Assembly (NCBI RefSeq): GCF_044324785.1
Contig: NZ_CP172127.1
Direction: 5' to 3' (one strand)
Origin: Escherichia coli
GTDB lineage: Bacteria > Pseudomonadota > Gammaproteobacteria > Enterobacterales > Enterobacteriaceae
Length of the DNA: 64,000 bases
Both the position numbers and the translations under genes were made by a program. Positions 1-32,019 of this stretch are shown here, piece after piece; positions within the stretch are counted from its first letter, which is position 1; every line of letters begins with the position of its first letter. Below the pieces are notes generated by a model. That model worked only from the letters and a program-made list of their open reading frames with translations. It was not told the origin of the DNA and made no database searches.

Positions 1-481
1 CCCGGTTGATCAGCACATGGTTGAAGCCCAGCAACTGGATATGGCCGAGGGCATCCAGATGCTCATGCAGCAGTGCGACCAGCGCCGCCACAAACTCGTC
101 ATGGCGGTTGCGCTGTTTGACCTCAACAATCAGCCCCATGCTGTTTTCCACCGCCCAGCGCAGCACGTCCGCCAGCAAGGGGATGCGCGTTCCGGCAAAC
201 GACGGATGGTATTTCACGCCAAAGTCGCACGCCAGCAGCTGCGGGTACGTCATCTGCTCCACAAATCCGTGTCCGGTGGATACCCGGTCGATACGGTGAT
301 CGTGCGTGACCACCAGTTGGTTATCCGCCGTCAGGTGGATATCGATTTCAATACAGTGGGTTCCCGCCAGGCGGGCGGCTTCAAAGGCCGGGAATGTGTT
401 CTCCGGCGCGCAGCTGGAATAACCTCGGTGGCTGTTGGCCAGCACGATCCCCTCTGCCGCCCGGTGAAAGTTAAACGCCAT
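1..481 (-). CDS. Glycerophosphodiester phosphodiesterase family protein (GDPD/UgpQ-like); start at 481, runs off the window start
   Basis: Minus-strand translation from the ATG at 481-479 reads MAFNFHRAAEGIVLANSHRGYSSCAPENTFPAFEAA...HCIEIDIHLTADNQLVVTHDH, typical of the GDPD family; preceded by an RBS-like stretch and an AT-rich promoter region 482-680. The listed + ORF 17..511 is its antisense shadow. Confidence 0.7.
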   Translation of the reverse strand, partial: MAFNFHRAAEGIVLANSHRGYSSCAPENTFPAFEAARLAGTHCIEIDIHLTADNQLVVTHDHRIDRVSTGHGFVEQMTYPQLLACDFGVKYHPSFAGTRIPLLADVLRWAVENSMGLIVEVKQRNRHDEFVAALVALLHEHLDALGHIQLLGFNHVLINR

Positions 482-14889: not shown

Positions 14890-15001
14890 CAATAACCGGG
14901 GCTAACGCAGTTAGCCCCACAGTAGCGGAAAACGTTGTTTACCTTCAGGGCTGGGCGATCTCCATGATCGCAAACGATGCTTAACCTGTTAAGGAGATTC
15001 C

Positions 15002-16552
15002 ATGAACAGCATAAAACTAGAATGGAAACGTGGTGACTGGGCGGCTTACTTTGGACTGATGACCAACAATCTGACTAACCTGCTGACAATGATGGGTCTG
15101 CTAATTTTTGTCGTCGGAATCCCTACTGAAATTGTCTATGGACGCATTGCGCCTGCCTTTGGTCTTGCAGTGCTGGCGGCCAGTGTCTGCTACTCCTGGT
15201 TTGGTCTACAGATGGTGAAGAAAACCGGTCGTAGCGATGTAACGGCGCTGCCGTCTGGACCGAGCGCACCCTCAATCTTTACCGTGACATTCCTGGTGCT
15301 GATGCCGGTTTATCAGCAAACCAAAGATGCCAACTTTGCTATTCAGATAGGATTGGTGTGGTGCTTTGTCGAAGCGTTGATCCTGGTCGGTGGCTCCTTC
15401 CTGGGTGAGACTATCCGCAAGATGATCCCGCGTACAGTGCTGCTTTCTTGTCTGTCCGGACTGGGGTTATTACTGCTGGCAATGAACCCGATGCTGCAAG
15501 CGTTCGAAGCGCCGACAGTTTCTTTCATCGTCCTGTTATTGATCTTCATTAACTGGTTCGGTAAGAAGCCGATTTTTCCCCATATTCCTACCGGTTTGCT
15601 GTTGCTGATTGCTGGTACGTCCCTAGCGTGGATATCCGGTTTACAAAGCCCGGAAGACATTAAAGCGTCGATGTCTTCCTTCGGCTTCAACCCGCCGGAA
15701 ATTCATGTAAGGAGCTTCCTGCAAGGTTTGCCGCACGCTCTGCCATATCTGGCTTCTGCAGTTCCTTTGGGCCTGGCTAACTACATTTTTGACCTCGAGA
15801 ACATTGAAAGTGCGCACGCGGCTGGTGATGAATACAACACCCGTAAGGTCATGATGGCGAACGGCTTTGCCTCCATGCTCGGTTGCATGCTGGGTAATCC
15901 GTTCCCGGTAACCGTATATGTTGGGCATGCAGGCTGGAAAGCTATGGGCGCTAGTATCTGCTATACCCTCGCATCAGGCATCACTATGTTTCTGGTGCCA
16001 TTGTTTGGGTTGGGCGCGTTTATGCTCGCCATTATTCCCATGACTGCTATAGTGCCAATTCTGGTTTTTATCGGTGTGGTAACCGCCAATCAGGTGGTGC
16101 GAGAAACTCCTAAAGTCGAGGTTCCCGTCATTTTCATCTGTCTGTTCCCATGGGTCGCCAACTGGGCATTGACCATCGTTAACAGCGTGATGGGCGCAGC
16201 CGGAACATCCGCTGAGAAACTTGGTAGCGACCTGTTGCACAGCAAAGGCGTCTATTACGATGGACTGATGCATCTGGGAAGCGGTGCACCGCTGGCCAGC
16301 ATGCTGTGGGGATGCATTGCTATCTTTGCCATTATGAATAAGCCGCTGCGCGGGGCGATAGCTGCATCCTTTGGAGCACTGTTATCGCTGTTTGGCGTGA
16401 TTCACTCCCCAGCGGTTGGCTTTGCGGAAGGCAGCTCGATTGTGTTTGTTGTGGCCTACCTGATGATGCTTGCTATGTTTGCCCTCAAGCATGTTATTGA
16501 TAGCCGTGAAACAGTGGCTGCGTCTGAGCAGGAAGAGACTAAAACGACCTGA
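15002..16552 (+). CDS. Polytopic membrane transporter (putative nucleobase/ureide-type permease), not part of the K-12 yah cluster
   Basis: 516 aa, at least 10 hydrophobic segments; RBS AAGGAGA before the ATG; family unresolved without a search. Confidence 0.65.
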   Translation: MNSIKLEWKRGDWAAYFGLMTNNLTNLLTMMGLLIFVVGIPTEIVYGRIAPAFGLAVLAASVCYSWFGLQMVKKTGRSDVTALPSGPSAPSIFTVTFLVLMPVYQQTKDANFAIQIGLVWCFVEALILVGGSFLGETIRKMIPRTVLLSCLSGLGLLLLAMNPMLQAFEAPTVSFIVLLLIFINWFGKKPIFPHIPTGLLLLIAGTSLAWISGLQSPEDIKASMSSFGFNPPEIHVRSFLQGLPHALPYLASAVPLGLANYIFDLENIESAHAAGDEYNTRKVMMANGFASMLGCMLGNPFPVTVYVGHAGWKAMGASICYTLASGITMFLVPLFGLGAFMLAIIPMTAIVPILVFIGVVTANQVVRETPKVEVPVIFICLFPWVANWALTIVNSVMGAAGTSAEKLGSDLLHSKGVYYDGLMHLGSGAPLASMLWGCIAIFAIMNKPLRGAIAASFGALLSLFGVIHSPAVGFAEGSSIVFVVAYLMMLAMFALKHVIDSRETVAASEQEETKTT

Positions 16553-16578
16553 ATAGCCTGCAAACGGAAGATAATTCT

Positions 16579-17541
16579 ATGAAAGAACTTGTGGTCGTTG
16601 CCATTGGTGGCAACAGCATTATCAAAGATAACGCCAGCCAGTCGATTGAGCATCAGGCGGAGGCGGTGAAGGCCGTCGCCGATACGGTTCTGGAAATGCT
16701 GGCTTCCGATTACGACATTGTGCTGACCCACGGCAACGGGCCGCAGGTCGGTCTGGATTTACGCCGCGCGGAGATAGCCCACGAGCGCGAAGGGCTACCC
16801 TTAACGCCGCTGGCGAACTGTGTGGCGGATACGCAAGGCGGCATTGGCTATCTGATCCAGCAGGCGCTGAACAACCGGCTGGCGCCTCTCGGCGAGAAAA
16901 AAGCCGTCACCGTGGTGACTCAGGTGGAAGTGGATAAAAACGATCCGGGGTTTGTCCATCCCACCAAGCCCATCGGTGCATTCTTTAGTGAAAACCAGCG
17001 TGATGAACTACAAAAGGCAAACCCTGACTGGCGTTTTGTTGAAGATGCCGGACGGGGCTATCGCCGCGTGGTCGCCTCGCCGGAACCGAAACGTATTGTC
17101 GAAGCACCTGCCATTAAGACTCTGATCCAGCAAGGCTTTGTGGTGATTGGCGCGGGCGGCGGTGGCATTCCGGTGGTGCGTACTGACGCAGGGGATTACC
17201 AAAGCGTGGACGCGGTTATCGACAAAGATCTCTCTAGCGCGCTACTGGCTCGCGAAATTCACGCCGACATTCTGGTGATCACCACCGGCGTGGAAAAAGT
17301 GAGTATTCATTTTGGGAAACCCAACCAGCATGCACTGGATACAGTGGATGTCCTAACGATGGCCCGTTACATGCAGGAGGGTCACTTCCCGCCTGGGAGT
17401 ATGTTACCGAAGATTCTTGCCAGTCTGGAGTTCCTGGAACGTGGAGGTAAAAGAGTGATTATCACCACGCCTGAATGCCTGTCCGCGGCACTGCGTGGCG
17501 AAACAGGCACCCATATTATCCACTCCCAAGAGGAGACGTAA
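16579..17541 (+). CDS. Carbamate kinase-like protein (YahI/ArcC-like)
   Basis: MKELVVVAIGGNSI...VLTHGNGPQVG matches the carbamate kinase / amino-acid kinase family. Confidence 0.8.
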   Translation: MKELVVVAIGGNSIIKDNASQSIEHQAEAVKAVADTVLEMLASDYDIVLTHGNGPQVGLDLRRAEIAHEREGLPLTPLANCVADTQGGIGYLIQQALNNRLAPLGEKKAVTVVTQVEVDKNDPGFVHPTKPIGAFFSENQRDELQKANPDWRFVEDAGRGYRRVVASPEPKRIVEAPAIKTLIQQGFVVIGAGGGGIPVVRTDAGDYQSVDAVIDKDLSSALLAREIHADILVITTGVEKVSIHFGKPNQHALDTVDVLTMARYMQEGHFPPGSMLPKILASLEFLERGGKRVIITTPECLSAALRGETGTHIIHSQEET

Positions 17542-18639
17542 ATTAAGGAAAGCGACCGCCGCCGTGAATTTTTAATGTTCATTGCAGATTATCGTGGGCT
17601 GGAAATGATAACGGTTGGGGAGTTATTGTTTAGTTGCTAAAACAGAACGATAACCAACCCCAACCGTTCTCAATTTCGAATACTATCTTTTCCATTTATC
17701 TCTGGATAGGCTTTGACGTCGTCCCTACTGAGTAAAATCCCCCTCATCATCCACCTAAAACCGATTGAAAACGGTCATTACTCTTGTGGCAAACAGGCTA
17801 AAGCCGTTCACGATGCTTCACTTCGCACCTTATCGTAATGAACAATACTGGTATTTCCAGTTCAGTTACGCCTACCCGTCTACCGCATTCTTTGCCCTAA
17901 CTGCGGCATAGTTCGGGATTATATCAGCTGGCTAAAGCCTTATGCTCATCAGACCACATGACTCATTGAGCATGTTGAGGCGTTACTCAAAATCTTGCCG
18001 ATTAAACATATTTCGTAATTTCTTACCCTGCACTAACATATCATCAATACTATCGACAAACGTCAGTTGCAAATAGAGGTCACAGGGTCTGATTGATGTA
18101 CTGTCAAGGCCGGGTCATGAAAGAGTTTGCCCTGTTCAAAGCTCATCGTTACGCACCGTCGTAGCCGATGCGGATACTCATCAATCCTCTGGATAGGTGA
18201 GGTGCGTAGTAGAGAAGCTCGGTCGTTTTTCGTTAATCTGAATCAGTACTGTCAACATATTCAAGTCGTTAATATGGATATGAATACCTCCTTTGACCTA
18301 GAGGTACAGATGCACTACCCCCCAAGCTGTCAACGACGGATGAAAAGTGGCTCTTCCGCAACCTGGATGGAGATTTTCATGCCAGTGGACTCATGACCCT
18401 CTGCCTGAGTAGTTCAAATCCGGCTCGACCATACATCTGGCCTTTCAGCATTTTTAGCCAATTTACATGACTTTCGACCACCCCCCATTATTCCAGCGAC
18501 TGCTGATTGCCTCACATATAGCCGCAGCATCAGCTACCATCCTTGCAGCCACGCGCCGAAGTTACCACTTTCTCGTTGCTCTTTTAACCACTCCCTCCAT
18601 GGGTCCAGAAGTCCTCGCTCTGGAGGCCGGGTTGACATT

Positions 18640-19539
18640 TCAGGGAATGTTCCTGAACACACCCAGAGACTGACTGTCACACGTGATAAGCCTGTAATAC
18701 GGGATAAGCCTGTAATACGGGATAAGCCTGTAATACGGGATATTTCCCCTGAACCCACATCCCTTGTTATGTAGTGCCATAACCTCTGTCCAACGCTGAT
18801 GCCGTTTTTGGCGGGTTTGCTGTTTAAGGCGTTCCGGACGACGGAGCGATGCTACAGGCACAGACAGTACTGGCTTAGGTGATTTCTTTGGTGACAACCC
18901 ACTGGCAACAAGACGTATCAGAGGCATCTGTCTGTACATCATTCGTTCAGGCGCATCGCCAATATTTTTTAGCAGGTGCCATCGATCAGCTATCTGTCTG
19001 GCCTGAGGTGCACCTTCACGTGCTGCTGTCGCATAGACTCCGCCACGGTCACGTGAGACAACCTGTATTTCCGGATATTTTCTGAACCAGGTCGCCAGCG
19101 TACTCTGATCGCAACCGGGAAGCAGGACGAGGGGACGGTGAGTATCAAGATTGACAATTAACGTGCCGTAATGGTGGCCCCGATGCCACGCCCACTCATC
19201 AATACCGACATGAGGCGCGCCCGACTGTTTCGTCTCCGGGGTATTAATAACCCTGCGAAGAAGAGTATCAGCACTGCAACGGAGCCCCACTGCCGTTGCT
19301 GCCTGTTTCCCGGCCTCACCTCCGGCTATTAATCCCAGTTGATGTTGTAAATTTTGTAACACCTGTGAAGAATGCTGGGAGTGAACCGGCGAAGGGGGCA
19401 AGCGACCCGGCAAAAATTTTACGTGAACAAGCCGGGTTACGGCAGTACCAGTGGCGGACGGAAAATACAAGCCATAGCGTCTGCCCTGAGCAGGGTAGAT
19501 GCTGTATCCGGCGCCGACGATAACTATGAACAGAGTCAC
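18640..19539 (-). pseudogene. ISL3-family transposase fragment, 5'-truncated at the IS1 insertion, with repeat-containing C-terminus
   Basis: ...HVGIDEWAWHRGHHYGTLIVNLDTHRPLVLLPGCDQSTLATWFRKYPEIQVVSRDRGGVYATAAREGAPQARQIADRWHLLKNIGDA resembles the ISL3 transposase core; the N-terminal part is missing. Confidence 0.55.
18685..18738 (+). repeat. 18-bp perfect tandem repeat x3 (GATAAGCCTGTAATACGG)
   Basis: Three identical 18-bp units, read in the minus-strand ORF as (IPYYRL)x3. Confidence 0.9.
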
Positions 19540-19716
19540 TACGCTTAAAGCATTCAGGACTTGTGCTGTTTTGCGTTTTCCGTGGAGATGGAGGGTTATA
19601 CCGTCAGAGCTAATAATTTGTCGACTGCATCTCCATCCGCAAGGTAACTGTAGAAGTGTCTGGTGATGCTGCCAACTTACTGATTTAGTGTATGATGGTG
19701 TTTTTGAGGTGCTCCA

Positions 19717-19992
19717 GTGGCTTCTGTTTCTATCAGCTGTCCCTCCTGTTCAGCTACTGACGGGGTGGTGCGTAACGGCAAAAGCACCGCCGGACATCAG
19801 CGCTATCTCTGCTCTCACTGCCGTAAAACATGGCAACTGCAGTTCACTTACACCGCTTCTCAACCCGGTACGCACCAGAAAATCATTGATATGGCCATGA
19901 ATGGCGTTGGATGCCGGGCAACTGCCCGCATTATGGGCGTTGGCCTCAACACGATTTTACGTCACTTAAAAAACTCAGGCCGCAGTCGGTAA
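19717..19992 (+). CDS. insA: IS1 InsA
   Basis: [43 protein letters not shown]... matches IS1 InsA. Confidence 0.9.
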
Positions 19993-20414
19993 CCTCGCGC
20001 ATACAGCCGGGCAGTGACGTCATCGTCTGCGCGGAAATGGACGAACAGTGGGGCTATGTCGGGGCTAAATCGCGCCAGCGCTGGCTGTTTTACGCGTATG
20101 ACAGTCTCCGGAAGACGGTTGTTGCGCACGTATTCGGTGAACGCACTATGGCGACGCTGGGGCGTCTTATGAGCCTGCTGTCACCCTTTGACGTGGTGAT
20201 ATGGATGACGGATGGCTGGCCGCTGTATGAATCCCGCCTGAAGGGAAAGCTGCACGTAATCAGCAAGCGATATACGCAGCGAATTGAGCGGCATAACCTG
20301 AATCTGAGGCAGCACCTGGCACGGCTGGGACGGAAGTCGCTGTCGTTTTCAAAATCGGTGGAGCTGCATGACAAAGTCATCAGGCATTATCTGAACATAA
20401 AACACTATCAATAA
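19911..20414 (+). CDS. insB: IS1 InsB frame (expressed as InsAB' by -1 frameshifting)
   Basis: ORF carrying the IS1 InsB sequence ...[47 protein letters not shown]...; coordinates are the open frame, not a defined start. Confidence 0.8.
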
Positions 20415-20429
20415 GTTGGAGTCATTACC

Positions 20430-20578
20430 GTGTTCCCGACAGACGACTCGGTGAAAAAAGTGGTGTGGCTGGCAATCCAGTCTGCGTCCCAGAAATGGAC
20501 GATGCCGTTGAAGGACTGGCGAATGGCAATGAGCCGCTTTATTATCGAGTTCGGTGACCGCCTGGACGGTCACTTCTG
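20430..20578 (+). pseudogene. C-terminal fragment of an IS256/Mutator-family transposase, cut at the IS1 boundary
   Basis: VFPTDDSVKKVVWLAIQSASQKWTMPLKDWRMAMSRFIIEFGDRLDGHF followed by a stop; resembles IS256-family transposase C-termini as recalled; begins right at the IS1 end. Confidence 0.5.
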
Positions 20579-20848
20579 AGAAAAGGCATTTACACAGAAT
20601 CCTAAACAGGCTCATTCAGACAGCTTTTTATTTCACTATGGCTATCCCAGAACAATCAGTACAAATAATAAAAGACATATCACAGCAACACTCCACACTG
20701 ACAGCGCAAAAATAAATGCCGCCTTTGTTATCTTCATATACAAGCAACCTGTCCTGATAATCACCAGCTCATGTTTTATTCTTAACCATTCGTCACAAAT
20801 ACAACAAAAAATAACAGCAGCAGCACCGATATCACAATATAAGATACA

Positions 20849-21304
20849 TTATTCAACACCTGAATCCCCCGCCGCTTCTCTCCCCTTTATAAAACGCCCC
20901 TTCCGGAATCCAGACCGCTGCAGTGCACGACGAAGATGACCGTATACCGTCTTGTCATTCTGCCCCGTCTCTTCTGTAATCTCCGCAATACTTAAACCTC
21001 TGTAATACCGGTTCAGTAACGCTCTGCGCTCTTCCAGCGTCAACACACCTCCGGCCGCTCTCAGATTCAGCATCGACTTATTCAGAATACAGCAGGCCTC
21101 TCCGGTAAAAAGAATACGAACAATATCTGTATACTCATCATCACAGAATACAAAATAATATCTGAATGACCTGCCTGACTGCACCCTTCTTCTGTCTGAT
21201 ATGGCATCTTCTATATATCTGATTCGACTGCTTACGGTTCCAAATACCTCTCGCAGGGCTTTTTCAAAATAAATATCTCTCGTCGCCAGGATTATATCCA
21301 GCAT
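20849..21304 (-). CDS. Putative HTH transcriptional regulator (LuxR/sigma-70 region-4-like C-terminus)
   Basis: C-terminal LTLEERRALLNRYYRGLSIAEITEETGQNDKTVYGHLRRALQR resembles a GerE/region-4 HTH; lies immediately upstream of the adhesin gene on the same strand. Confidence 0.5.
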   Translation of the reverse strand: MLDIILATRDIYFEKALREVFGTVSSRIRYIEDAISDRRRVQSGRSFRYYFVFCDDEYTDIVRILFTGEACCILNKSMLNLRAAGGVLTLEERRALLNRYYRGLSIAEITEETGQNDKTVYGHLRRALQRSGFRKGRFIKGREAAGDSGVE

Positions 21305-21365
21305 CTCTGTACCTCATTATATCCCGGGGGACTCCCCCCGGGACAGATATCTAAATCCTGACCTG

Positions 21366-22631
21366 TCAGAACTCAAAATTCACACCAGCATTCCACGATG
21401 CGGATGACCCACCTGCAGCAACTGCAACTTTTCCTGCCACATTCTCTGTGAAACGGTAGCCCACGCCCACCGCAATGGCCTGCTCATCACGGTAACCACC
21501 AACGGCTGCTGTCGCGTTAAATTTTCCAACACTGTATGGCTGGAAAAGACCGGCCAGTGCCGCGCTCTGGGCTGCACTCTCCCTTAACTCCTTCCGGTTC
21601 TCTTTAATCTGCTCCTGCATATTATTCATTCTCTCTGTCGCCATCTTCTGCCAGGCTTCCGTCAAATCCAGACGATGACTGTTATTCCTTATCGCTGCTG
21701 TATTTGAGGCTATTGCTGCATCCGTCTGCGCCCTGTTCTTCACAAGCACATCGCTGAGATGTTCTGCCTGGCTTTTCGCTTCTTTACGGGCATCCCGTAC
21801 ACTTTTATCTGTATAAGCCCGGGAAACCTGAACTGTTTCATCCGCTTTTTCTTTTATTTCATCCTGAAGAGCAAGAGAAGATGCATCCGTATACGCCACC
21901 GCTGCCGATGTGCCTGCAATAATATCCCTGCTGAGTTCATCACGTACTGCTGTAACCTGACTGTCAGTATGAGCACGGGCATCTCTGTATACACCGCCTA
22001 TCTCACCGCGCAGGGCATCCCCCGACACCCGTACAGCATCTGCAATGGCGTTGTCCATCTGTCCTTTTGTGGCCGCATCACTATCCTTAACACCATCTGA
22101 AACATTTATAATCCGGCGGGTTTCCGGTGCTCCTTTGACACTCTCTCCATATCCCTCAGGCCCGGCACCAACAGATACCACGTTATTTTCTCCCGACACC
22201 TGTGAGCCATGGCCCAGAGCTACAGAACTGGTAGAATCCTGCACAGATGAAAACGCACCAATTGCCGAGCTCTGACGAGAAGAAATAAGTGACGCTTCTT
22301 TTCCTGCAACAGTCCCCCATTCAGAGTCAGCAATAAGTGCATCATGCCCCAGACTCACACTTCCCGGAGAGTTCACAACACCAGAATTATTCCCCAAAAG
22401 CACAGTCCTGTTTGAGTCTAATAAAAAAGAATCATCACCAATCAACCATACATTTCTTACTTTATCAATCGAACGGCCAGCTACTGATTCTCCAACAAGA
22501 AAGCTATTATCTTCGCCAGGTTCAATCGGTCCGATTAAAATATCCTGAGCCTGAGCCTGAGCCGAGAGCAGCAGGGCCACACTCACTGCCAGCGCGCTTT
22601 TCTTTAAAAAAGCATCACGTCTTTTAAGCAT
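21366..22631 (-). CDS. Trimeric autotransporter adhesin (YadA-like C-terminal anchor; Eib/Saa-like)
   Basis: Signal peptide [28 protein letters not shown]; repetitive head, long coiled-coil stalk; C-terminal anchor ...[35 protein letters not shown]; RBS AGGAGA before the ATG at 22631. Confidence 0.7.
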
Positions 22632-23118
22632 TCTGTTATTCTCCTGTATTATTACTTCACCAGCCAGAACGGTAGTGCGGAGCAAAAATACAGTGATAAG
22701 AATCCTCTTTTATTAATTTAATAATGCCAGGAATATTATTGTGTATAATATGCGCCCTCAATTTAAGCAGCAGAAAAGCAATGACGAGAAAATCATTAAA
22801 ATACATAAAGATAAAACATCATAACTATAATTATAATAAGCGCGCTTATTTTAGCATCTGAACATTTAAAGTACTGCTATCACAAAACAATAAAAATCCT
22901 GGGTAATATCTCTGATGATTGAATGAGAAATTCACGATGTCTGGTGAGAATTCTGTTCAAAACGAGGAATGCAGACATACATGTGGCAGGCATGGACTTC
23001 CACCGATTTAACTTTTTTCCTTCCTTGTATTTACACATCACACATTTTGCGCTACAAAAATTTCACGTGGCACGCACCACGTGATCCGTAGAAAAGCCTC
23101 TTGTTACGAATTTCGTAA

Positions 23119-23150
23119 ACCGCACGTCTGTCTGGTCGTGCGGATTTTTT
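23119..23150 (+). terminator. Orphan intrinsic-terminator-like hairpin with U-tract
   Basis: CCGCACG-tctgtctggt-CGTGCGG followed by ATTTTTTAT; no + strand CDS upstream. Confidence 0.4.
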
Positions 23151-23343
23151 ATCCGTCAACTTCACATGAAACCGCCAGATCACTGTTTCCGGATTCAGAC
23201 ATCAGGCATATTATCATCCACAATGTCGTGAACAAGATCACACTTTTGCAATTCCTTTATTGATCGAAAGCAGTTAATCACGGAAATTAATTACCGGAGT
23301 GAAAGCATTACTGCATCGTAAATATCTACCATTTTTGACTACA

Positions 23344-23373
23344 CCCTCTGACAGAATTTTCAGAGGGTTTTTT
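23344..23373 (+). terminator. Orphan intrinsic-terminator-like hairpin with U-tract
   Basis: CCCTCTGA-cagaattt-TCAGAGGG followed by TTTTTTAT. Confidence 0.45.
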
Positions 23374-23827
23374 ATCAGTTTCACCATCCAACCCTGTACG
23401 CCAGAATGGTTTCACTGTCACTCAGTTCTGCTATTGCCTTTTTCATCTCCCTTTACCTTACGTTCTGCCAGAGTCTGAGCCATTTGAACAGGAGGTTATC
23501 ATTGATATCGTGTTCCCGGGCAATACGGGCAACAGAGGCTCCTGGTTGCAAAACCAGTTTAACCATTTGAAGTTTAACTCATTTGAAAATGATCTGCGGG
23601 GTTCTGCGGATAATGTTTTTGCTCCATAACAGGCGCCCACCAGTTTGAAAAGGTGGGCACCTACGTTACCAATACTGGCTTAATGGATACATACGGCGGT
23701 CGGTTCTTACGGTAAAACGACACAACCAAACGCTTCTTATCCTGCAATGAACTGCTTTATTACCGAGTTTAGTGACCGCACAGACACTCACTTTTAAGAA
23801 AAACAGAATGGTAAACAAACTCCATGA

Positions 23828-24007
23828 ATTACAATAGCTCTCTGGCTGCCGCCACAATAGCTTGCGCGGTTAACCCGTACTCTCTCTGTAAAAAGTCCTG
23901 AGTTTCAACCTGGCCATACCGCTCTTTAACCCCCACCCGACGCATGGGCACAGGACAAGTTTCTACAAGCACTTCAGCAACTGCTGAACCTAATCCATTA
24001 TGAATAC
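23828..24007 (-). pseudogene. 3' remnant of a transketolase C-terminal-subunit gene, truncated by the IS1-like element
   Basis: Minus-strand translation ...IHNGLGSAVAEVLVETCPVPMRRVGVKERYGQVETQDFLQREYGLTAQAIVAAARELL* resembles transketolase C-terminal domains; the upstream coding sequence is replaced by the IS1-like element at 24008. Confidence 0.5.
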
Positions 24008-24770
24008 GGTAATGACTCCAATTAGTTGAATTAGGAGTATAATAGCCACTTTTAAGGTTCTTTCATGGTCACAGTTAACCTTCATTGCTCCTGTTGCCAG
24101 TCCGTTCAGGTTTACCGTCACGGGAAGAACCCAAAGGACATGATCGATTTCGCTGCCGTGACTGTCATCGAGTGCTTCAGCTCACTTACCGTTACGAGGC
24201 CCGTAAACCGGGAGTTAAAGAGCAAATCACTGAAATGGCTTTCAACGGTGCCGGAGTTCGCGATACTGCCCGTACGCTGAAAATCGGCATTAATACTGTC
24301 ATCCGGACTTTAAAAAACTCTCGCCACGAAGAATAACGTCATACCCGGTCGCTCATGCTGATATGGCACTCATCTGCGAACTTGATGAGCAATGGAGTTT
24401 TGTCGGCAGTAAAGCGCGACAGCACTGGCTCTGGTACACGTACAACACGAAAACTGGTGGCGTTCTGGCCTACACTTTTGGCCTACGGACTGATTAAACC
24501 TGTCGTGAATTGCTGGCGCTGCTTGCCCTTTTACCATCGGTATGTTGACCACTGACGAATGGGGTAGTTACACCAGAGAGTTACCGAAGGAGAAGCATCT
24601 GACTGGTAAGATTTTTACTCAGCGCATTGAGCGCAACATCTACCTCTGAGAACCCGAATCAAACGTCTGGCCCGCAGAACTATCTGTTTCACGCGCTCTG
24701 TAGAACTTCATGAAAAAGTCATCGGTGCCTTTATCGAAAAATATATGTTCTACTAATTGGAGTCACCACC
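24008..24770 (+). mobile_element. Degenerate IS1-family element (divergent from canonical IS1, disrupted reading frames)
   Basis: IS1-like termini GGTAATGACTCCAA ... TTGGAGTCACCACC; InsA-like ...RFRCRDCHRVLQLTYRYEARKPGVKEQITEMAFNGAGVRDTARTLKIGINTVIRTLKN and InsB-like fragments split across frames. Confidence 0.7.
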
Positions 24771-25321
24771 TTCGTTTGTTTAAAGAACCTGCTGGTCCTG
24801 CCATTAATATTACCTGCTGATTGCTTCACATCCGGATTCCTCGCACTGCGCGCGGGTTATTGTTTCGTTTTCGGCCACGGGGTCGCCAGGGCTCTGTTTG
24901 CAGGCCATGATGGCCTGACCTGTACTGTTTCTCAGGCACTGAGATGTCCGTTTACGCCATTTGTTCCCGGATATCCTTAACCTCTGACGTTTGTTCCCTG
25001 CCCCTCTGTCTGATAACGAATACGCTCACAACGCACAGTACTGAACAATACCGACAACAACATGTCTTACATGAAATTCGCTGTAACATCCACCGGAAAA
25101 CATTTTCAGATATCGGATGAGGTACTACTTCCATTGACAGCGCGAGGTAACAAAATTGATGGTAACTCTGACCATTAACCGTAAACCGCAGGGTATTTTC
25201 AGTAAATCACCGGCAACGCCGCTGCAGAATAAAACGGACACAGCATACAAAATGAAGGCCGGTGACCAGATACCACAGTTGAACGATAAACAGAAACCTG
25301 CTGATAAAACACCGTGGCGAC

Positions 25322-25667
25322 ATGACAAAACGCCAGAGCAAAAACCGTAAGCGCATTATTCGTCTTGTGGAACTCTGGCCTGAGTCATTCAACCGGGAAA
25401 AAAACAAAACCACTTAAAGTGGGGATACCTGACGACCTGATACAGGATATCGCCATCCGAGAACTGGCGTTTGGCGCTGGTACATTACATGCAGCAGTGG
25501 CGTCTTATGTGCAGTCTCCGCGCTATTACCGTGCGTTAATAGCAGGTGGCGCCCGTTACAACCTGAACGGTCAGCCGTGCGGGGAAGTGACACCACAGGA
25601 ACAGAAAGAGGCAGAGACCCGTTTAATGATGCTGAATGACCGACGAAAAGACAGAAAACCTCGTTGA
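25322..25667 (+). pseudogene. FinO/ProQ-family RNA-chaperone-like gene interrupted by a frameshift in an A7 tract
   Basis: Frame 1 MTKRQSKNRKRIIRLVELWPESFNREKNKTT* stops at 25415-25417; the +1 frame continues ...KPLKVGIPDDLIQDIAIRELAFGAGTLHAAVASYVQSPRYYRALIAGGARYNLNGQPCGEVTPQE (FinO-like); junction at GGGAAAAAAACAAAACC (25395-25411). Confidence 0.55.
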
Positions 25668-25684
25668 CTGCACAACAGCGCTGT

Positions 25685-26437
25685 TCACTGAGCTGTAATC
25701 AATGTACAGCGCTGTACCGGGCGATGGGTAATACCGGTCACAACCGGTAACCCCAGAGACAATGCAACTGTTTTTAACGCAATATACTGGCCGGATGTAT
25801 CACCCCGGGCAGCCTGAAAACACCTTTCCACCCGGCATTGTCCGTCAGCACTTATCACCCGCCATGTCTGTTGCAATAAATCCACCCGTTGCGAACATTC
25901 TTCATCAACCGTGGCACTGACCCGTGGATGGCAAATGCTCGTCTGGCTGAGCAGCAACAGGCATCGCATTGTTGCTCCTCCATGTTGTTCCCGCAACCAG
26001 CGTAATACCACCGGTGGTGCTGGACTGGCCGTGTGATTACGTTCAGTAATACGCTCGTGCACCTGTCGGTAAAAGGAAGTACAGAATGCATGAATCTGTT
26101 GTCCGTTGATGTTTCCTTCTGCCGAATGGAGTGTGAAGTGGACGGCCAGCAGACGCGGCCAGTGATCCACCGCCTGCTGAATAAAACGCCGGATTTCCAC
26201 CGGCTCTGAAAGTACGGTTTCGGTTATTTGCACGATTTGATCCCCTTGAATGTTGCTGAACCGGTGTCGGTACGCAGGAAAGCACGCCGAGACCGGTACG
26301 ATGCCTGTTACAGCGAAGAACGAGGAATGACAGACGGGGGCAGCAGGTCGCCAGCACCAGGGACAGGGCTGATTTCCACAATACCAACGCTGGTATTTTG
26401 CACATTGCCAGCGTACCGGCATTACAACACGTTTCAT
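25685..26437 (-). CDS. Hypothetical protein, start overlapping the alpA stop
   Basis: ORF with ATGA overlap to alpA; cysteine/tryptophan-rich N-terminus (MKRVVMPVRWQCAKYQRWYCGNQPCPWCW); no family recognised. Confidence 0.4.
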   Translation of the reverse strand: MKRVVMPVRWQCAKYQRWYCGNQPCPWCWRPAAPVCHSSFFAVTGIVPVSACFPAYRHRFSNIQGDQIVQITETVLSEPVEIRRFIQQAVDHWPRLLAVHFTLHSAEGNINGQQIHAFCTSFYRQVHERITERNHTASPAPPVVLRWLREQHGGATMRCLLLLSQTSICHPRVSATVDEECSQRVDLLQQTWRVISADGQCRVERCFQAARGDTSGQYIALKTVALSLGLPVVTGITHRPVQRCTLITAQ

Positions 26438-26670
26438 GCGGCGACTCCCCGTGATGCTTCGATGCGCTGCTGCATCCACTGCTCCACTTCGCTTCTGTAC
26501 CAGCGGCTGCTGCGGCCCAGTTTGATGGGTTTAGGGAAATGGCCTTCACTGATCAGCTTGTAAAACCATTTGTCGGTCATACCAGTGAAGCTGGTGATGT
26601 AGTTCATGTCGATCAGGGGATCGTCGGCACGCAGCAATACGCTGTCGTGACCTGTCATTGAGGTCAACAT
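26434..26670 (-). CDS. alpA: AlpA-family phage/island transcriptional regulator
   Basis: 78 aa; ...LIDMNYITSFTGMTDKWFYKLISEGHFPKPIKLGRSSRWYRSEVEQWM matches the AlpA HTH family. Confidence 0.8.
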   Translation of the reverse strand: MLTSMTGHDSVLLRADDPLIDMNYITSFTGMTDKWFYKLISEGHFPKPIKLGRSSRWYRSEVEQWMQQRIEASRGVAA

Positions 26671-26738
26671 GGTCAGAATGTCCTCTGTGAGATTTATGAA
26701 TGTTGGGCAAATGCGGGTGAATCTGCTGAGCTGAGCTT

Positions 26739-27311
26739 TCAGAGCTGGCCTGCTACGGGATACCAGGGATTACCGGCGAGGTAACGGGCTTCCGGATCGC
26801 GCACACCACGACGATCGCGGGCGAAATCACTGAACGCCCATATCAGCTCTTTGAGTCTCTCTTCGCAGTCCGGTGAACGGGGATCCAGCAGCACATCCCG
26901 GGTAATCTGCTTCTGGTACGGTGCCGCTTCACCCGGTGACGCGAAGCCCAGTACGTTGCTCCAGGCATCCAGAATCAGCCGATCCAGTTCAGGGCCGTCG
27001 AAATATTCCTCCCTGACGCACAGCACCACGTGGTATTCCGGTTTTTCAGGATGACGAGTCAGGAGCCAGCAGAGATCACGTCCGGGGGTTGCATTCATCA
27101 GCGCACTGACGGTTTCGATAAAGGCCATACCGAACCAGGTTTTTCTGTCGCTGAAGATGTTGCCATGTTCCCCCGGCAGACGAAGCAGGATCCGCCGTAT
27201 TCGGGAGCAGGGCTGCTCACGCAGCGCACGCTCAAGGACACCGATAACTTTGCTCTGATAAGATGGCCAGAAGGGCGCCATGCTATAGTCGAAATAAGGG
27301 ATAGCATTCAT
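26739..27311 (-). CDS. YagK/YfjJ-family protein (inovirus Gp2-type), apparently 5'-truncated relative to its paralogue
   Basis: Similar to the 27668..28399 paralogue (YHVVLCVREEYF vs YHVILLLNKDTW); the paralogue's conserved 5' leader motif lies about 160 bp upstream of this gene. Confidence 0.55.
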   Translation of the reverse strand: MNAIPYFDYSMAPFWPSYQSKVIGVLERALREQPCSRIRRILLRLPGEHGNIFSDRKTWFGMAFIETVSALMNATPGRDLCWLLTRHPEKPEYHVVLCVREEYFDGPELDRLILDAWSNVLGFASPGEAAPYQKQITRDVLLDPRSPDCEERLKELIWAFSDFARDRRGVRDPEARYLAGNPWYPVAGQL

Positions 27312-27667
27312 AAGATATGTTCCGTTATACGCAGCCCACAACGCGTCCTGCCCGTGGATGCGCTGACGTGTTATGGCTTGCGTATGGGGTTGATGGAATA
27401 AGTGAAAAACCGCGGCAGAACGGGAAGATCAGGTAACCGACAAGGGACAGAACACCGGATGCAGGTTCAGAATGAATGATCTCCGTTGACTTCGGTTCAC
27501 ATCATTAAGCAGGACAGTAAGGTTTTACCGACGGAGTGTTTCCAGGAGCGAAAGCAGAGAAAAATACCGTTGCATGACTTCAGGACGACTTTTTCAGAAA
27601 ACGAGCTAAGGGCGTCAGCCAACGTCCTGTAGCATAAGCTCAGGCACCGGATGTCGTTTTACAGGGC

Positions 27668-28399
27668 TCACCTGCCATCCAGTAGACGCCCCGGCCCACG
27701 ACTGCAACCATAATTACGTTGCCCGGAACCGTTATGCAACTTCGTTTCATATTTCACGAGATAACTGGCTCTGTTCCGGGCTTTCTGCATCGCTTCCACA
27801 TCACCACGCTTGACCCAGAGCACAGCGGATTCACCCGGCTTTTTGTCTGAAGCCTTCCTGGTATCAGAACATCCACCCGACAAAGGCGTATCATCGGAAG
27901 AAGGGCGAGCATCAGATGATGTCGGTTTACGGAAAGGCGTCCGCCTGGAAAAATGAACCAGTCCATTACCCTGCCAGGGCTCAAGATGCAGAGCACTACA
28001 CCATGCCAGCTTGATCAGTGTCGCCAGCGAAGAAGGAACGGTGAAATCCCCTGGCGAGCACCAGGTATCTTTGTTGAGCAGCAATATCACGTGATAATGT
28101 TTCCTGCCTTTTTCCTTGCCAAACTCCCGGCACCAGAAATAACGCAGAGTGGTTGCACGCACACGCTTGTTGGCACGTCGTTTTTTCCGCTGGTAAGCCT
28201 GAATTTTGGCTTTCAGGGATGCAAAAAAACGAGAAATCACCGCTGAATCCGGATCGGGATCCATGATGGTGACAGGCATATACTCAGGGAAACGTAAATC
28301 CACCCGGATTAACGAGACGGCACGGTGCTGCGCCAGGGCACTGTCGAGAAGGCTGTCAAAACGGGATAACCAGTAAGCATTATGTATTGGTTGATTCAT
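27668..28399 (-). CDS. YagK/YfjJ-family protein (inovirus Gp2-type)
   Basis: 243-aa ORF; RBS GGAG about 10 nt upstream of the ATG; family assignment from recalled CP4-type island proteins. Confidence 0.6.
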   Translation of the reverse strand: MNQPIHNAYWLSRFDSLLDSALAQHRAVSLIRVDLRFPEYMPVTIMDPDPDSAVISRFFASLKAKIQAYQRKKRRANKRVRATTLRYFWCREFGKEKGRKHYHVILLLNKDTWCSPGDFTVPSSLATLIKLAWCSALHLEPWQGNGLVHFSRRTPFRKPTSSDARPSSDDTPLSGGCSDTRKASDKKPGESAVLWVKRGDVEAMQKARNRASYLVKYETKLHNGSGQRNYGCSRGPGRLLDGR

Positions 28400-29319
28400 G
28401 ATGAGAGATCTCCGTTGATTTGGATTGACTTCACATCATTAATCACCGCAGTAAAACTTTACGGCGTCCTGTCATTAAGCAACACCAGTGGCTCCTGATT
28501 AGAACAGAATGAGTTTCCCACGAACAAAAAGACAAACCTACACGCAGGGTAAAAACACGCAACAACAGCATGAATGGATTTGAAAACAATATGGATGACG
28601 AAAAATGTCAAAAGTGAAACGGATCAACAGAACGTGCAAACAAAACGTCAGAAACGCAATCAGAGCACTTTCTGGCGCTGTGAATCAACAACAACACCAA
28701 AACCTACAGCTTAACCACATTACTCAATCACGAATGCGAATGACACGTTTAAAACCTGTTTACAGATAACGCCGTAACACGATCATCCCCATCACCATCA
28801 GAATCGATTTTCTCATCCCGAAAATGTTACGTTTCACTACGCACCATAAAAACGATTAACCATCGATAACGTAAATCTCATCTGAATCAAAAAACCAAAA
28901 CCAATCATCACACTTTCGCAATGCAAGAAGAAAAACCACATCATGACGAAAACAATGACCTTACATGAAAAAGCAAAACGTCAGGAATCGTTAATGCCTC
29001 AATCTGATTGTTATCAAAACATCCAGAAAGTCGTTTAACAGAATCGTCGTAAGCACATCGAAAAGAACGTCAGATCACCTCAGGAAAGTTCGGGTTGATT
29101 TAGCGTAAAGATACTTTTCTCAGCTTAACGTCGAAACACAAACCAAAAACCACAAACAACCAAAGCTCAGGAAAGGTTAAACGTCACATCAGTAAAATCG
29201 AATAGCAGATTGATTGCTTAAACAGAAAGGTTTTACAGCAGCTTTAAACTGATTTTAGCTAACGTAAAGATTTACTAAACTGGATGAGTTTCAGACAAAG
29301 CAATGTGTACAGCAATGCT

Positions 29320-29500
29320 TAATGAAAACACTTATAGGGCTGTTTATGAAAACACGTGTATGTCTGGTAAAACACTTAGTAGAAAATACGTGTATAACAC
29401 TTACTGAAATGCTTAGTAAAAATACTTAGTAAAATATGTGTAGAATTATCTATTTAAAAAGATATGTATATAACACTTAATAAAAACATGTGTATATAGT
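29320..29500 (+). repeat. Cluster of at least 7 degenerate 11-bp direct repeats (AAAA[CT]A[CT][GT]T[AG][TG]); iteron-like
   Basis: aaaacacttat, aaaacacgtgt, aaaacacttag, aaaatacgtgt, aaaatacttag, aaaatatgtgt, aaaacatgtgt within about 180 bp of an ORF-free AT-rich stretch. Confidence 0.6.
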
Positions 29501-30138
29501 ATCATACCGACATTCTCAACATCTTCAGACTTCCATACATACTGGGTGTTGATTTCTCACTTTTACAGCCAGCATGGAGTTTTCTGTCCTAAAAACAGAG
29601 CAGATTTACTCTGGAATTATTTTTCTGCCCCCGTATTTCAGGCCCCAGAAAAGACAATCCGAAGCAAACCGTTTGTCAGCCTCCATATCATCTTTTACCC
29701 CCGGAAAGTGATCGCGTTTTACAACCAGAATGACAGCCATACTGATTATGTCGTCTCCCGGCCCCCTTCACATATAACATGCATGTCTGTCATTGCTTAC
29801 TGCTCCACATGACCGGATTTCACATACAGGATGCACATTCAGTGTTTTTATCGCCACTATAACAGACAGATTACTGTCGTCTTTACTCTTCAGATTGTTA
29901 ATCTGACCACAAGAACAGCCGAACGGCAAAACGCCCTCCACAAGGGGCACATGAACCATAGTTGATAGCATGTTTTTCCTAATCAAGGAATAGTTCAGGA
30001 ATATTTTATTGCATTAATAACTGGCGAATAATCGTTCTGTGAACACAAAATGCTTTTATTTGTAAATTTTATTGCATTGCACTCGTTTTATTGATATGGG
30101 GTTTAATAACAGATAACCCGGAAAGAAGGAGAAAACAG

Positions 30139-30930
30139 ATGACATTACGGATTAACGATCAGGGGCGAGATAAACAGAATCAATTTTTATCGAAAAATGG
30201 AGAAAATCTGAATTCGTTAAAATCGCGTCATGTGCAGGATAGGCATTTACCTGAATGGCTTAAGGATAAAGTTGCAGCATTCTGGTTTTGTCTGGTGATA
30301 AAGGATATGAAAGTGTCAGGGAGCAGTTACTATGAACTTACCATGCAACTTCCCACTTCTGAAGAATCTGTTTGCATCAGTAAGCTGTCATCCTCAACCC
30401 ATGAGATTCGGCTGGAGATCATCAGGCGATGGATTGATAGTGTAGCACAGATAGAAACGGAAGCTTTTACTAAAAATCTCGTTGATGCCATCTATAAAAA
30501 CTGGAAGGAAATCGGGAACAAAAACCAGGCTACATGGCTTAAAAAAAATCCGGAACAACTCGAGTGGGCATGGAAATATATTAACATTCGTATTCCCGAG
30601 TCACATTTAACCTGGTTTTGCCCCGTCAATAACGAAGAGAAACGCATTGCCATCTTAGCATTGCTTAAAATACTGTATCCCGGAGATATACCATGCCAGT
30701 ACAACGACAAAGAGTTTCATGTCGGGATCTGCGCTGAAGAACATTTTTACAGAAGAATGCACGACGCTTTCAGAAAACAGTTTATCGACGGGAAAAAAGA
30801 TAAACGGGTACAAATTAACGTAAAGATATCACCGTCCGCAAAAAGCGCTCTGGACAGACTGACCAGAGCGAGGAAAACAACACAGCAGGCTATTCTGGAA
30901 CAACTGATTCTGAACGGTAGACTGGATTAA
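30139..30930 (+). CDS. Hypothetical protein (263 aa), possible ribbon-helix-helix-like C-terminus
   Basis: RBS AAGGAG 8 nt before the ATG at 30139; no recognisable catalytic motif; C-terminal ...KISPSAKSALDRLTRARKTTQQAILEQLI. Confidence 0.5.
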   Translation: MTLRINDQGRDKQNQFLSKNGENLNSLKSRHVQDRHLPEWLKDKVAAFWFCLVIKDMKVSGSSYYELTMQLPTSEESVCISKLSSSTHEIRLEIIRRWIDSVAQIETEAFTKNLVDAIYKNWKEIGNKNQATWLKKNPEQLEWAWKYINIRIPESHLTWFCPVNNEEKRIAILALLKILYPGDIPCQYNDKEFHVGICAEEHFYRRMHDAFRKQFIDGKKDKRVQINVKISPSAKSALDRLTRARKTTQQAILEQLILNGRLD

Positions 30931-31928: not shown

Positions 31929-32019
31929 TTTGTCACTCCAGATTTTTTCACGTCCATATTACCTGAATGATAAACCGGATTAGTGTGATCCGGTTCAGCG
32001 AAATCAACAGGATACCGGT

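Follow-up and report, generated by a model that had tools for sequence, protein, structure and literature searches.

A predicted short YadA-type trimeric autotransporter adhesin gene trailed by a putative TosE/ORF-156-family regulator gene in Escherichia coli

The window, a 64,000-nucleotide stretch of an Escherichia coli contig (NZ_CP172127.1) that is 99.9% identical to E. coli strain GF60, carries two adjacent minus-strand genes between a complete IS1 and a degenerate IS1-like element (Table 1). The first encodes a 421-aa protein, named "YadA-like family protein" by PGAP, whose ORF reads from an ATG at 22631 to a stop at 21366–21368 with AGGAG 9 nt 5' of the ATG; it is undamaged, and its sequence is identical to NCBI protein P0032. 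The second encodes a 151-aa HTH protein (PGAP: "sigma factor-like HTH DNA-binding protein") with GAGG 7 nt 5' of its ATG. The interval given in the original prediction, 20849–22631, is exact, running from the last stop-codon base of the HTH ORF to the adhesin ATG, and its two flanking elements were rightly named, one being a complete IS1 with insA/insB and the other IS1-like and frameshifted. That prediction had also put the HTH gene on the same strand as the adhesin gene, which holds, and upstream of it, which does not: on the minus strand, where both genes lie, it comes 61 bp 3' of the adhesin gene. It is therefore a passenger that trails the adhesin, rather than a regulator gene placed upstream.

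Table 1. Features of the adhesin locus and its flanks, in window coordinates or in residues of the encoded proteins.
Feature	Position	Strand	Comment
IS1, complete, 768 bp	19662..20429	+	both inverted repeats, insA/insB
IS1414 3'-end remnant (IS256 family)	20430..20613	+	departure point from module copies elsewhere
Candidate small hydrophobic ORF, 31 aa	20642..20737	-	MKITKAAFIFALSVWSVAVICLLLFVLIVLG; conserved with module
Gene for 151-aa predicted regulator, TosE/ORF-156 family	20849..21304	-	ATG 21304, stop ends 20849
Truncated receiver-like alpha/beta domain (predicted)	151-aa protein, aa 1-82		
LuxR/GerE/sigma-region-4-type HTH (predicted)	151-aa protein, aa 88-131		
GC-rich hairpin, 11-bp stem CCCGGGGGG/CCCCCGGG	21320..21345	-	between adhesin stop and HTH start
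Trimeric autotransporter adhesin gene (predicted)	21366..22631	-	421 aa, intact
Signal peptide (predicted)	adhesin, aa 1-28		read from sequence
Left-handed beta-roll head (predicted)	adhesin, aa ~29-165		
Neck (predicted)	adhesin, aa ~166-200		
Coiled-coil stalk (predicted)	adhesin, aa ~200-362		single copy of 33-aa repeat
YadA anchor (predicted)	adhesin, aa 363-421		Pfam
Hexamer repeat CTCAGG x3.3, in frame	22544..22563	-	encodes AQAQAQ at signal-peptide cleavage region
Adhesin Shine-Dalgarno sequence AGGAG	~22641-22645	-	
AT-rich non-coding region, 37-42% GC	22632..23400	-	5' of adhesin; kept with module in other genomes
Weak sigma-70-like site	22862-22833	-	promoter scan
IS3-family transposase N-terminus remnant (HTH_Tnp_1)	23438..23613	-	~0.8 kb 5' of adhesin in most copies
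Degenerate IS1-like element	24010..24771	+	frameshifts and stops; end coordinates approximate

By its predicted domains, the 421-aa protein is a short trimeric autotransporter adhesin (TAA) of the YadA type (Oca family, type Vc), much as had been proposed, and the expected anchor is present in an intact gene. Pfam places PF03895 (YadA_anchor) at residues 363–421 (E=2.6e-16) and YadA_stalk/neck at residues 173–199 (E=1.2e-3), positions 157–458 of the NCBIfam YadA model align with residues 109–420 (E=3e-22), and a PDB sequence search finds the solved YadA anchor 2LME at E=1.3e-17. The head repeats, which the same domain search had been expected to recover, match YadA_head at E=0.24 only. Hydrophobic residues recur with a period of 7.5 in the head, 3.70–3.75 in the stalk (residues 196–300) and 2.1 in the anchor, the stalk value being that of a pentadecad coiled coil, and alignment of alleles reveals the neck motif. 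The signal peptide, identified by eye rather than by a predictor, has a basic n-region (KRR..KK), a hydrophobic core and an AQA|Q cleavage motif; it is kept across 13 alleles, among which the copy number of the CTCAGG hexamer varies. The protein thus resembles the YadA/Oca family in its signal peptide, beta-roll head, neck motif, pentadecad stalk and anchor of four strands per monomer. It differs from Yersinia YadA, to which it is ~29% identical, in its shorter head and in belonging to an E. coli mosaic allele series of its own. We infer that it may confer an adhesive, autoaggregative or serum-resistance phenotype.

That series combines at least three head types, two connectors and one to four 33-aa stalk repeats into proteins of 391–557 aa, of which the window's allele, with one repeat, is the shortest form. 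While the heads differ, the DNA of the trailing HTH gene is at least 99% conserved, and this gene occurs in up to 6 copies per genome, beside the hypervariable heads. The series is enriched in poultry E. coli and could aid colonisation or autoaggregation of APEC/ExPEC-like strains. We found no prior study of it under any name, and the papers on the tkt1 island and on BEN2908 do not mention the adhesin.

The 151-aa protein is, judged by sequence, a diverged member of the TosE/ORF-156 family (phrog_6585), the match being weak yet consistent between methods. We reached this homology via the locus context. Searched directly, the protein had no significant match in PDB sequences, and an exhaustive search of 1.84 billion representatives yielded nothing beyond fragments from E. 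coli and three borderline HTH matches; a Pfam search of ORF-156D gave zero matches. In pairwise comparison, TosE of CFT073 aligns full-length (residues 2–132) with a BLASTP E=3e-9 at 22% identity, and ORF-156D aligns full-length at E=2e-4, similarity to both TosE and ORF-156 being 22% only. In profile comparison, the ORF-156 profile matches the 151-aa protein with an hhalign probability of 93.6% (E=2e-7, 130 columns) and TosE with 99.8% (E=9e-29). All three match phrog_6585, the 151-aa protein over its N-terminal half only (E=3.4e-4). The LT..E … KTV motifs of a C-terminal LuxR/GerE-type HTH are present, and an AF2 model (pLDDT 75.8, pTM 0.73) has four beta/alpha units followed by a three-helix HTH; modelling was usable only with a joint ORF-156 alignment, as the single-sequence run gave a pLDDT of 37.5. 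The predicted receiver-like domain (aa 1–82) can be set beside the complete receiver of NarL/FixJ response regulators, which has ~120 aa and a phospho-acceptor pocket.

The linkage of the two genes is obligate and the arrangement recurs. The HTH gene was found in 183/5426 complete genomes and the junction of anchor, spacer and HTH gene likewise in 183/5426, unbroken in 163; the 61-bp spacing was constant in 9/10 loci read. The same order of adhesin, hairpin and TosE-like gene is seen at eibA/C/D/E, at a prophage TAA, at a plasmid-like TAA and at tosA-tosE. ORF-156, a ~150-aa ORF family, follows every eib gene of ECOR-9, each time after a hairpin. In one sub-lineage of ORF-156 (P0171), the gene is not preceded by an adhesin. 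TosE is of the same size and fold class as the 151-aa protein and is also encoded just 3' of an adhesin gene and its hairpin, although its partner TosA is an RTX protein whereas the partner here is a TAA. The tosRCBDAEF cluster is a UPEC adhesin operon with TosE and TosF (LuxR-family) at its 3' end, and it differs from the window's locus on two further counts: no TosF-like second regulator is found here (TosF itself matches the 151-aa protein at E=0.036, in the HTH only), and no TosR/PapB-type gene lies upstream. Taken on sequence and layout, the window's HTH gene, ORF-156 and TosE form one family with one locus layout.

Between the two genes, the 73-nt spacer folds with an MFE of -28.2 kcal/mol (z = -2.2), and no U-run follows the hairpin; eibD and tosA are also trailed by hairpins, and those of the Eib and Tos loci have U-runs. 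Upstream of the adhesin, the promoter scan that gave the weak sigma-70-like site was not enriched over shuffles, with fewer sites than shuffled sequence. Rfam models had no matches over 19500–25500, and no tRNA genes lie within the window. ORF-60 was considered as a homologue of the small ORF at 20642–20737 and rejected, the likeness being one of hydrophobicity only, with no demonstrable homology.

We think it rather probable that these genes form a module of a short TAA and a TosE/ORF-156-family regulator, expressed by read-through, with motility as the most likely target, and that the module is part of the cargo of an E. coli genomic island of CP4 type, now decayed. TAAs reach the periplasm by the Sec route and export their passengers through a 12-stranded trimeric barrel. 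Accordingly to this family scheme, the Sec signal peptide would take the adhesin to the periplasm, three C-terminal anchors would form one 12-stranded outer-membrane barrel, and the exported passenger would fold as a lollipop of beta-roll head, neck and a coiled-coil stalk that is first right-handed (pentadecad) and then left-handed. Heads would be interchangeable (at least three types), and stalk length would be set by the 1–4 copies of the 33-aa repeat. The two genes are probably co-transcribed, such that read-through from the adhesin promoter, past a hairpin that has no U-tract, would make the regulator, whose level would thereby report adhesin expression. The putative DNA targets of the 151-aa protein would lie in other genes, most likely those of flagellar motility, which it would damp as reported for TosE/TosF, and it may act on the adhesin promoter too. 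TosE and TosF are associated with motility suppression in passages of two papers (PMC5956150; PMC10392849; both citing Engstrom et al. 2014), the first of which describes TosE as having an "unknown regulatory function" (PMC5956150). Against this reading stand that description of TosE, the low (22%) similarity to TosE and ORF-156, the P0171 sub-lineage and the outcome of the promoter scan. Moreover, the hairpin could terminate transcription despite having no U-run, in which case the trailing gene might be expressed at a low level or from a promoter of its own.

The module also has parallels, in proposed role and in position, among other small regulators whose genes neighbour those of adhesins gained by horizontal transfer, such as AutA/AutR of the APEC upaB cluster and PapX/FocX. 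PapX is a MarR-type, adhesin-linked regulator that ties adhesin expression to other surface traits. The adhesin-adjacent AutA and AutR do the same (PMC4844996), although they are separate transcription units, unlike the probably co-transcribed pair described here.

It is possible, if doubtful, that the 151-aa protein is instead devoted to autoregulation, acting on the adhesin promoter in the AT-rich region 22632–23400 either as an activator (by positive feedback or against H-NS) or as a negative brake, and is no cross-regulator of motility. The 37–42% GC of that region is typical of H-NS-silenced foreign DNA, the region travels with the module, and the conservation of the regulator amid variable heads would fit a fixed cis target. 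AutA and AutR, which are of LuxR/GerE type, directly bind and control the upaB promoter (PMC4844996). However, TosE and TosF, the only studied homologues, were tied to motility, and the regulators named for tos are TosR, H-NS and Lrp (PMC5956150). Autoregulatory and motility roles are not mutually exclusive.

Both genes were already annotated and amount to rather ordinary cargo for an island; the family link of the trailing gene is a more useful result than the adhesin itself. ORF-156, found behind all eib genes of ECOR-9, was previously uncharacterised and is now joined with TosE of uropathogenic E. coli. The family and layout common to the HTH gene, ORF-156 and TosE provide a testable handle on how poorly expressed adhesins are tied to the surface programme. 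As a tentative extension, the TosE family (phrog_6585) may be a general "adhesin-trailing" class of E. coli regulators. Hairpin-gated genes of ~150 codons would then have been captured behind no fewer than three mutually unrelated sorts of horizontally acquired adhesin: the RTX protein TosA, the Eib TAAs of prophages, and TAAs carried by islands or plasmids. Their dose would report adhesin synthesis and switch cells from a motile to a sessile state, and the window's copy would represent the most diverged branch.

The adhesin had been described as Eib/Saa-like, and we consider it improbable that it is a functional Eib-type protein conferring immunoglobulin binding and serum resistance. Several observations do point that way: NCBI and UniRef call some relatives in its cluster "immunoglobulin-binding protein", an ORF-156-type gene lies downstream as at all eib genes, and the anchor with the membrane-proximal stalk is homologous to that of the Eibs (57–62% identity over residues 304–396). 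Against it, overall identity to EibC/D/E is only 35–39%, DNA similarity is restricted to the anchor (73%), and in an alignment with EibA/C/D/E the adhesin has no counterpart of the Eib N-terminal domain (~100–130 aa, before the beta-roll head). The stalk block common to the same four Eibs of ECOR-9 (…LTRAEGA.KTI.VNDGLVALSGRTDRID.AVG.ID.RVT.NTQ…) is also missing, replaced by unrelated stalk sequence. By our own residue count, this block overlaps the published IgG-binding segment of EibD, residues 384–418. In addition, the PDB sequence search matched nothing but the YadA anchor and a chimera of NadA type, with no EibD structure among the matches, and the eib genes of ECOR-9 lie in lambdoid prophages whereas the window's adhesin is island-borne. 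Because identity is low and both the N-terminal domain and the four-Eib stalk block are absent, the adhesin would not be an Eib proper. For the Eibs, the predicted kinship therefore stands at the superfamily level and fails at any closer one, so neither immunoglobulin binding nor serum resistance can be assumed.

For the best relatives on plasmids, identity over comparable spans reaches no more than 38%, a single 59% match spanning residues 1–175 only, and none of the matches listed in that search is named Saa, the STEC autoagglutinating adhesin of plasmid pO113. By description, the adhesin can be likened to the Cla and Yal lineages, EibG-like E. coli TAAs that occur in non-Eib genomic contexts and have no Eib N-terminal domain; Cla does not bind IgG, and a saddle domain, present in Cla and absent from Yal, divides the two (bioRxiv 10.64898/2025.12.25.695649, Dec 2025).

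The flanking elements had been thought to suggest a mobilisable virulence cassette, and two IS1-family elements in direct orientation do bracket the adhesin-HTH pair, as in a composite transposon mobilising it from IS1 (19662–20429) to the IS1-like element (24010–24771). We regard this as very unlikely. A 9-bp target duplication is absent both from the ends of IS1 and from the outer ends of the composite (flanks GAAGTGTCT and TTCGTTTGT); the right-hand element is dead, frameshifted with internal stops, and its GF60 counterpart is annotated by PGAP as "IS1 family transposase; frameshifted; internal stop". IS1 itself lies within the IS1414 remnant. The IS1-like element stands where strain GF4 has a LacI/PTS/transketolase operon, which has been deleted here. 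In other genomes, at different chromosomal positions, the pair occurs without these IS1 copies, beside mliC, yaiO, znuA, IS1414 or IS3, and no such segment with a 9-bp duplication was seen at a new site. Position 20614 was considered as a discrete element end and rejected: the alignment shows that IS1414 inserted there, and the sequence of other copies extends ~100 bp further, up to an additional end fragment of IS256 type. The carriers of the pair are CP4-type genomic islands, and those of its relatives are lambdoid prophages and a plasmid-like contig.

Finally, the PGAP name of the 151-aa protein might suggest a sigma-factor fragment or minimal sigma factor that would work through RNA polymerase and not in the manner of a classical repressor or activator, a reading we find scarcely credible: Pfam detects sigma-70 region 4 only (Sigma70_r4_2, residues 87–130, E=3e-7) and no region 2, NCBIfam sigma models score 16–20 bits against cut-offs of 43–222, and the N-terminal domain is alpha/beta rather than helical in the AF2 model.

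The 421-aa ORF product is identical to the NCBI 'YadA-like family protein' P0032, so the adhesin gene is intact, and the 151-aa ORF matches the PGAP 'sigma factor-like helix-turn-helix DNA-binding protein' WP_000884153.1, annotated at the corresponding position in E. coli GF60 (the window is Escherichia coli chromosome, and its bases 15000–32000 match this strain at 99.9%, apart from additional IS insertions in GF60). Both ORF ends agree exactly with the predicted interval of 20849–22631. The helix-turn-helix (HTH) gene, however, had been placed upstream of the adhesin and lies 61 bp downstream of it, both genes being on the minus strand. Generic RefSeq annotation already covers both genes; what is new here is that the trailing gene is assigned to the TosE/ORF-156 family and that the adhesin-hairpin-regulator layout recurs.

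Coordinates of the adhesin-HTH pair and neighboring features in the window
Feature	Position	Strand	Remarks
18-bp tandem repeat	18534–18760		In ISL3-family transposase remnant
IS1	19662–20429		Complete; within IS1414 remnant
IS1414 3' remnant	20430–20613		
31-aa hydrophobic ORF	20642–20737	-	
HTH gene	21304→20849	-	151 aa; GAGG 7 nt 5' of start
Adhesin gene	22631→21366	-	421 aa from ATG; AGGAG 9 nt 5' of start
CTCAGG hexamer repeat	22544–22563	-	In frame
Transketolase C-terminal stub	about 23829–23972		
IS1-like element	about 24010–24771		Degenerate: frameshifted, stops
YeeU/CbtA-type toxin-antitoxin block	36–38 kb		Of CP4-like island
512-aa ORF	39731–41269		

Judged by sequence alone, the 151-aa protein is nearly an orphan: 5.8 billion clusters held only near-identical E. 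coli and Salmonella copies, and 1.84 billion representatives yielded nothing past fragments and marginal HTH matches. Locus context gave the clue, as all four ECOR-9 eib records have the annotated order eib, stem-loop, orf-156, orf-60, and the protein was therefore compared with ORF-156, encoded behind each eib gene (eibA, eibC, eibD and eibE). It aligns end to end with ORF-156D, the one at eibD (22%, E=2e-4), and with a profile of 18 ORF-156 relatives over 130 columns (hhalign probability 93.6%, E=2e-7). Common to the protein and these relatives are an N-terminal ILATR..Y.E motif, an invariant Asp after strand 3 and LT..E…G…KTV, the LuxR/GerE HTH signature. Using the joint ORF-156 alignment, AlphaFold2 gave a pLDDT of 75.8 (single sequence, 37.5) and a pTM of 0.73, with a predicted four-to-five-strand alpha/beta domain followed by three helices. 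The top Foldseek matches to this model (TM 0.65–0.76) are small proteins of the E. coli strains UTI89, CFT073 and ED1a. In CFT073, the tosRCBDAEF adhesin operon ends with two LuxR-type genes, and the first of these encodes TosE, which at 160 aa equals the CFT073 match in length and may be the same protein. TosE matches both the ORF-156 profile (probability 99.8%, E=9e-29) and the 151-aa protein, over its full length (E=3e-9). The PHROG family phrog_6585 ('unknown function') matches ORF-156D (4e-99), TosE (5e-30) and, weakly, the N-terminal half of the 151-aa protein (3e-4). On these comparisons, the 151-aa protein is a TosE/ORF-156 family member. A sigma factor identity was rejected, with region 2 absent and all sigma models far below cut-offs.

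A TosE-family gene lies shortly 3' of an adhesin gene at several loci, with spacers of 61 bp (window), 88 bp (eibD and ORF-156), 82 bp (both a prophage and a plasmid-like trimeric autotransporter adhesin, TAA) and 120 bp (tosA and TosE). A strong hairpin is present in each of the three spacers folded (window, eibD, tosA); at Eib and Tos the stem is followed by a U-run, whereas the 11-bp GC stem of the window is followed by AUAUAAUGAGG, without a U-run. Adhesin pairing is frequent rather than universal, because no adhesin remnant was found upstream of the ORF-156 sub-lineage adjoining hpaBC. At these hpaBC loci (L019–L022), the 164-aa ORF-156 relative P0171, present in >390 collection blocks, is an orphan TosE-family copy with neither an adhesin gene nor an anchor remnant upstream, and a PerC-family gene lies ~3 kb downstream. 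On plasmid-like contigs carrying CcdAB and PIN/MazE (L027–L030), another relative, P0162, lies 82 bp past a 254–367-aa YadA-anchor gene, which is preceded by a 1439-aa TAA and a BamE/OmpA-domain gene. This YadA-anchor gene may vary in length because its repeat number does, possibly in a Saa-like series.

Read-through of the hairpin would account for most expression of the trailing gene, so that regulator levels would follow transcription of the adhesin. We favor a role for the 151-aa protein in coupling adhesion and motility, because of literature statements on the tos regulators TosE and TosF: PMC5956150 links them to suppression of motility, and PMC10392849 names TosEF among the regulators of fliC (each citing Engstrom et al. 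2014). A serious alternative is that the protein directly controls the AT-rich adhesin promoter region, as would be analogous to AutA/AutR at upaB (PMC4844996). The 31-aa ORF (MKITKAAFIFALSVWSVAVICLLLFVLIVLG) lies 110 bp past the HTH gene and is identical in all five aligned module copies reaching that far; at eib loci the corresponding position is held by orf-60, which encodes a transmembrane segment at the C-terminus. The 31-aa ORF could have arisen by chance, or it could encode a small membrane peptide as a third component.

The adhesin was correctly classed as a YadA-type TAA. Pfam places a YadA anchor at residues 363–421 (E=2.6e-16) and a neck/stalk motif at 173–199, the NCBIfam YadA model aligns residues 109–420, and 2LME, a solved YadA anchor structure, matches at E=1.3e-17. 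The head has a hydrophobic periodicity of 7.5 (two core positions for each ~15-residue beta-roll turn), stalk residues 196–300 one of 3.70–3.75 (the pentadecad pattern that marks the right-handed coiled coil of YadA and Eib) and the anchor one of 2.1; A(H/Y)TD motifs are spaced every 26 residues in the stalk. Such proteins are exported by the Sec route; three anchors form a 12-stranded barrel and the passenger folds at the surface as a trimeric lollipop. Thirteen relatives form a modular series of 391 to 557 aa, with a single signal peptide type (cleavage before QD, kept across all alleles compared), at least three unrelated head types, a conserved last head turn and neck, two alternative neck-to-stalk connectors, one to four copies of a 33-aa stalk repeat, and an invariant distal stalk and anchor. 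The window allele is a short form with a single repeat; the GF60 allele at the matching locus is 515 aa, the difference being bounded by the repeat. Variation in the heads and in the number of stalk repeats suggests that the exposed part is under diversifying selection, with the regulator fixed. At the signal-peptide cleavage site, the hexamer repeat codes for AQAQAQ, and alleles vary by one or two AQ units, changing c-region length without a frameshift.

Compared with EibC/D/E, the adhesin is 35–39% identical, a value that climbs to 57–62% solely across the final ~90 residues ahead of the anchor's end, and at the DNA level only its anchor resembles the four ECOR-9 eib loci (73%). In a multiple alignment it lacks both the N-terminal domain of the Eibs and the stalk block common to all four; by our residue count, this block overlaps the IgG-binding segment reported for EibD (384–418). 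Identity over comparable spans does not exceed 38% for plasmid-borne relatives, and it is about 29% for Yersinia YadA. By sequence, then, the adhesin is classed within the Eib/Cla/Yal/Saa superfamily of TAAs rather than as an Eib: the original Eib/Saa-like label stands as superfamily membership, and an Eib-like function was too specific given the low identity and the missing domain and stalk block. A preprint of December 2025 (10.64898/2025.12.25.695649) recognizes three groups of EibG-like adhesins in E. coli: Eib; Cla, which has a saddle and mediates chain-like adhesion but does not bind IgG; and Yal, which lacks the saddle, is closer to Saa and has no assigned function. Like Cla and Yal, as judged from their descriptions rather than their sequences, the adhesin has no N-terminal domain and a non-Eib context.

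Of 5426 complete E. coli genomes, 183 carry the window-type HTH gene (291 copies, all chromosomal, up to six per genome in GF60 and LH50-c), and the best copy is ≥99% identical in 182 of the 183 carriers. The anchor-spacer-HTH junction is present in 183 genomes and unbroken in 163. In 9/10 loci read, the HTH gene starts 61–62 bp past the gene called at the adhesin position; these genes encode 388–581 aa where intact, and a Pfam YadA anchor is recorded for eight. Poultry (chickens or others) was the source of 24 of 40 evenly sampled carriers, which suggests a recent expansion in avian-associated lineages.

The pair sits at one end of a decayed CP4-type island between a carbamate-kinase cluster and glnPQ; island genes include those for ProQ/FinO, AlpA, an inovirus-Gp2-family protein, a YeeP-like GTPase, DUF932, an antirestriction protein, RadC and YeeU/CbtA. 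No 9-bp target duplication was found at the complete IS1, which, within the IS1414 remnant, suggests IS1-mediated adjacent deletion or rearrangement. The IS1-like element takes the place of a 5.3-kb operon (LacI, PTS-ascorbate IIA-IIB-IIC, split transketolase) retained in GF4 (window 23645–24771 versus 19036–24683 of the GF4 locus L001), the transketolase stub being its sole remnant in the window. In other genomes the pair adjoins mliC, yaiO, znuA, IS1414 or IS3, without the window's IS1 copies. The proposed IS-flanked mobilisable cassette, as an IS1 composite transposon, is unsupported because the duplication is absent, the IS1-like element is decayed and the pair occurs without these copies; spread via carrier islands and prophages and recombination between copies explains the module better. 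The corresponding IS1 in GF60 is split by an IS21 element. The 512-aa ORF, missing from the GF60 counterpart, has the size of the ISEc8 (IS66-family) transposase, and the 18-bp tandem repeat reads as ITGLSR x3 and IPYYRL x3 in two frames.
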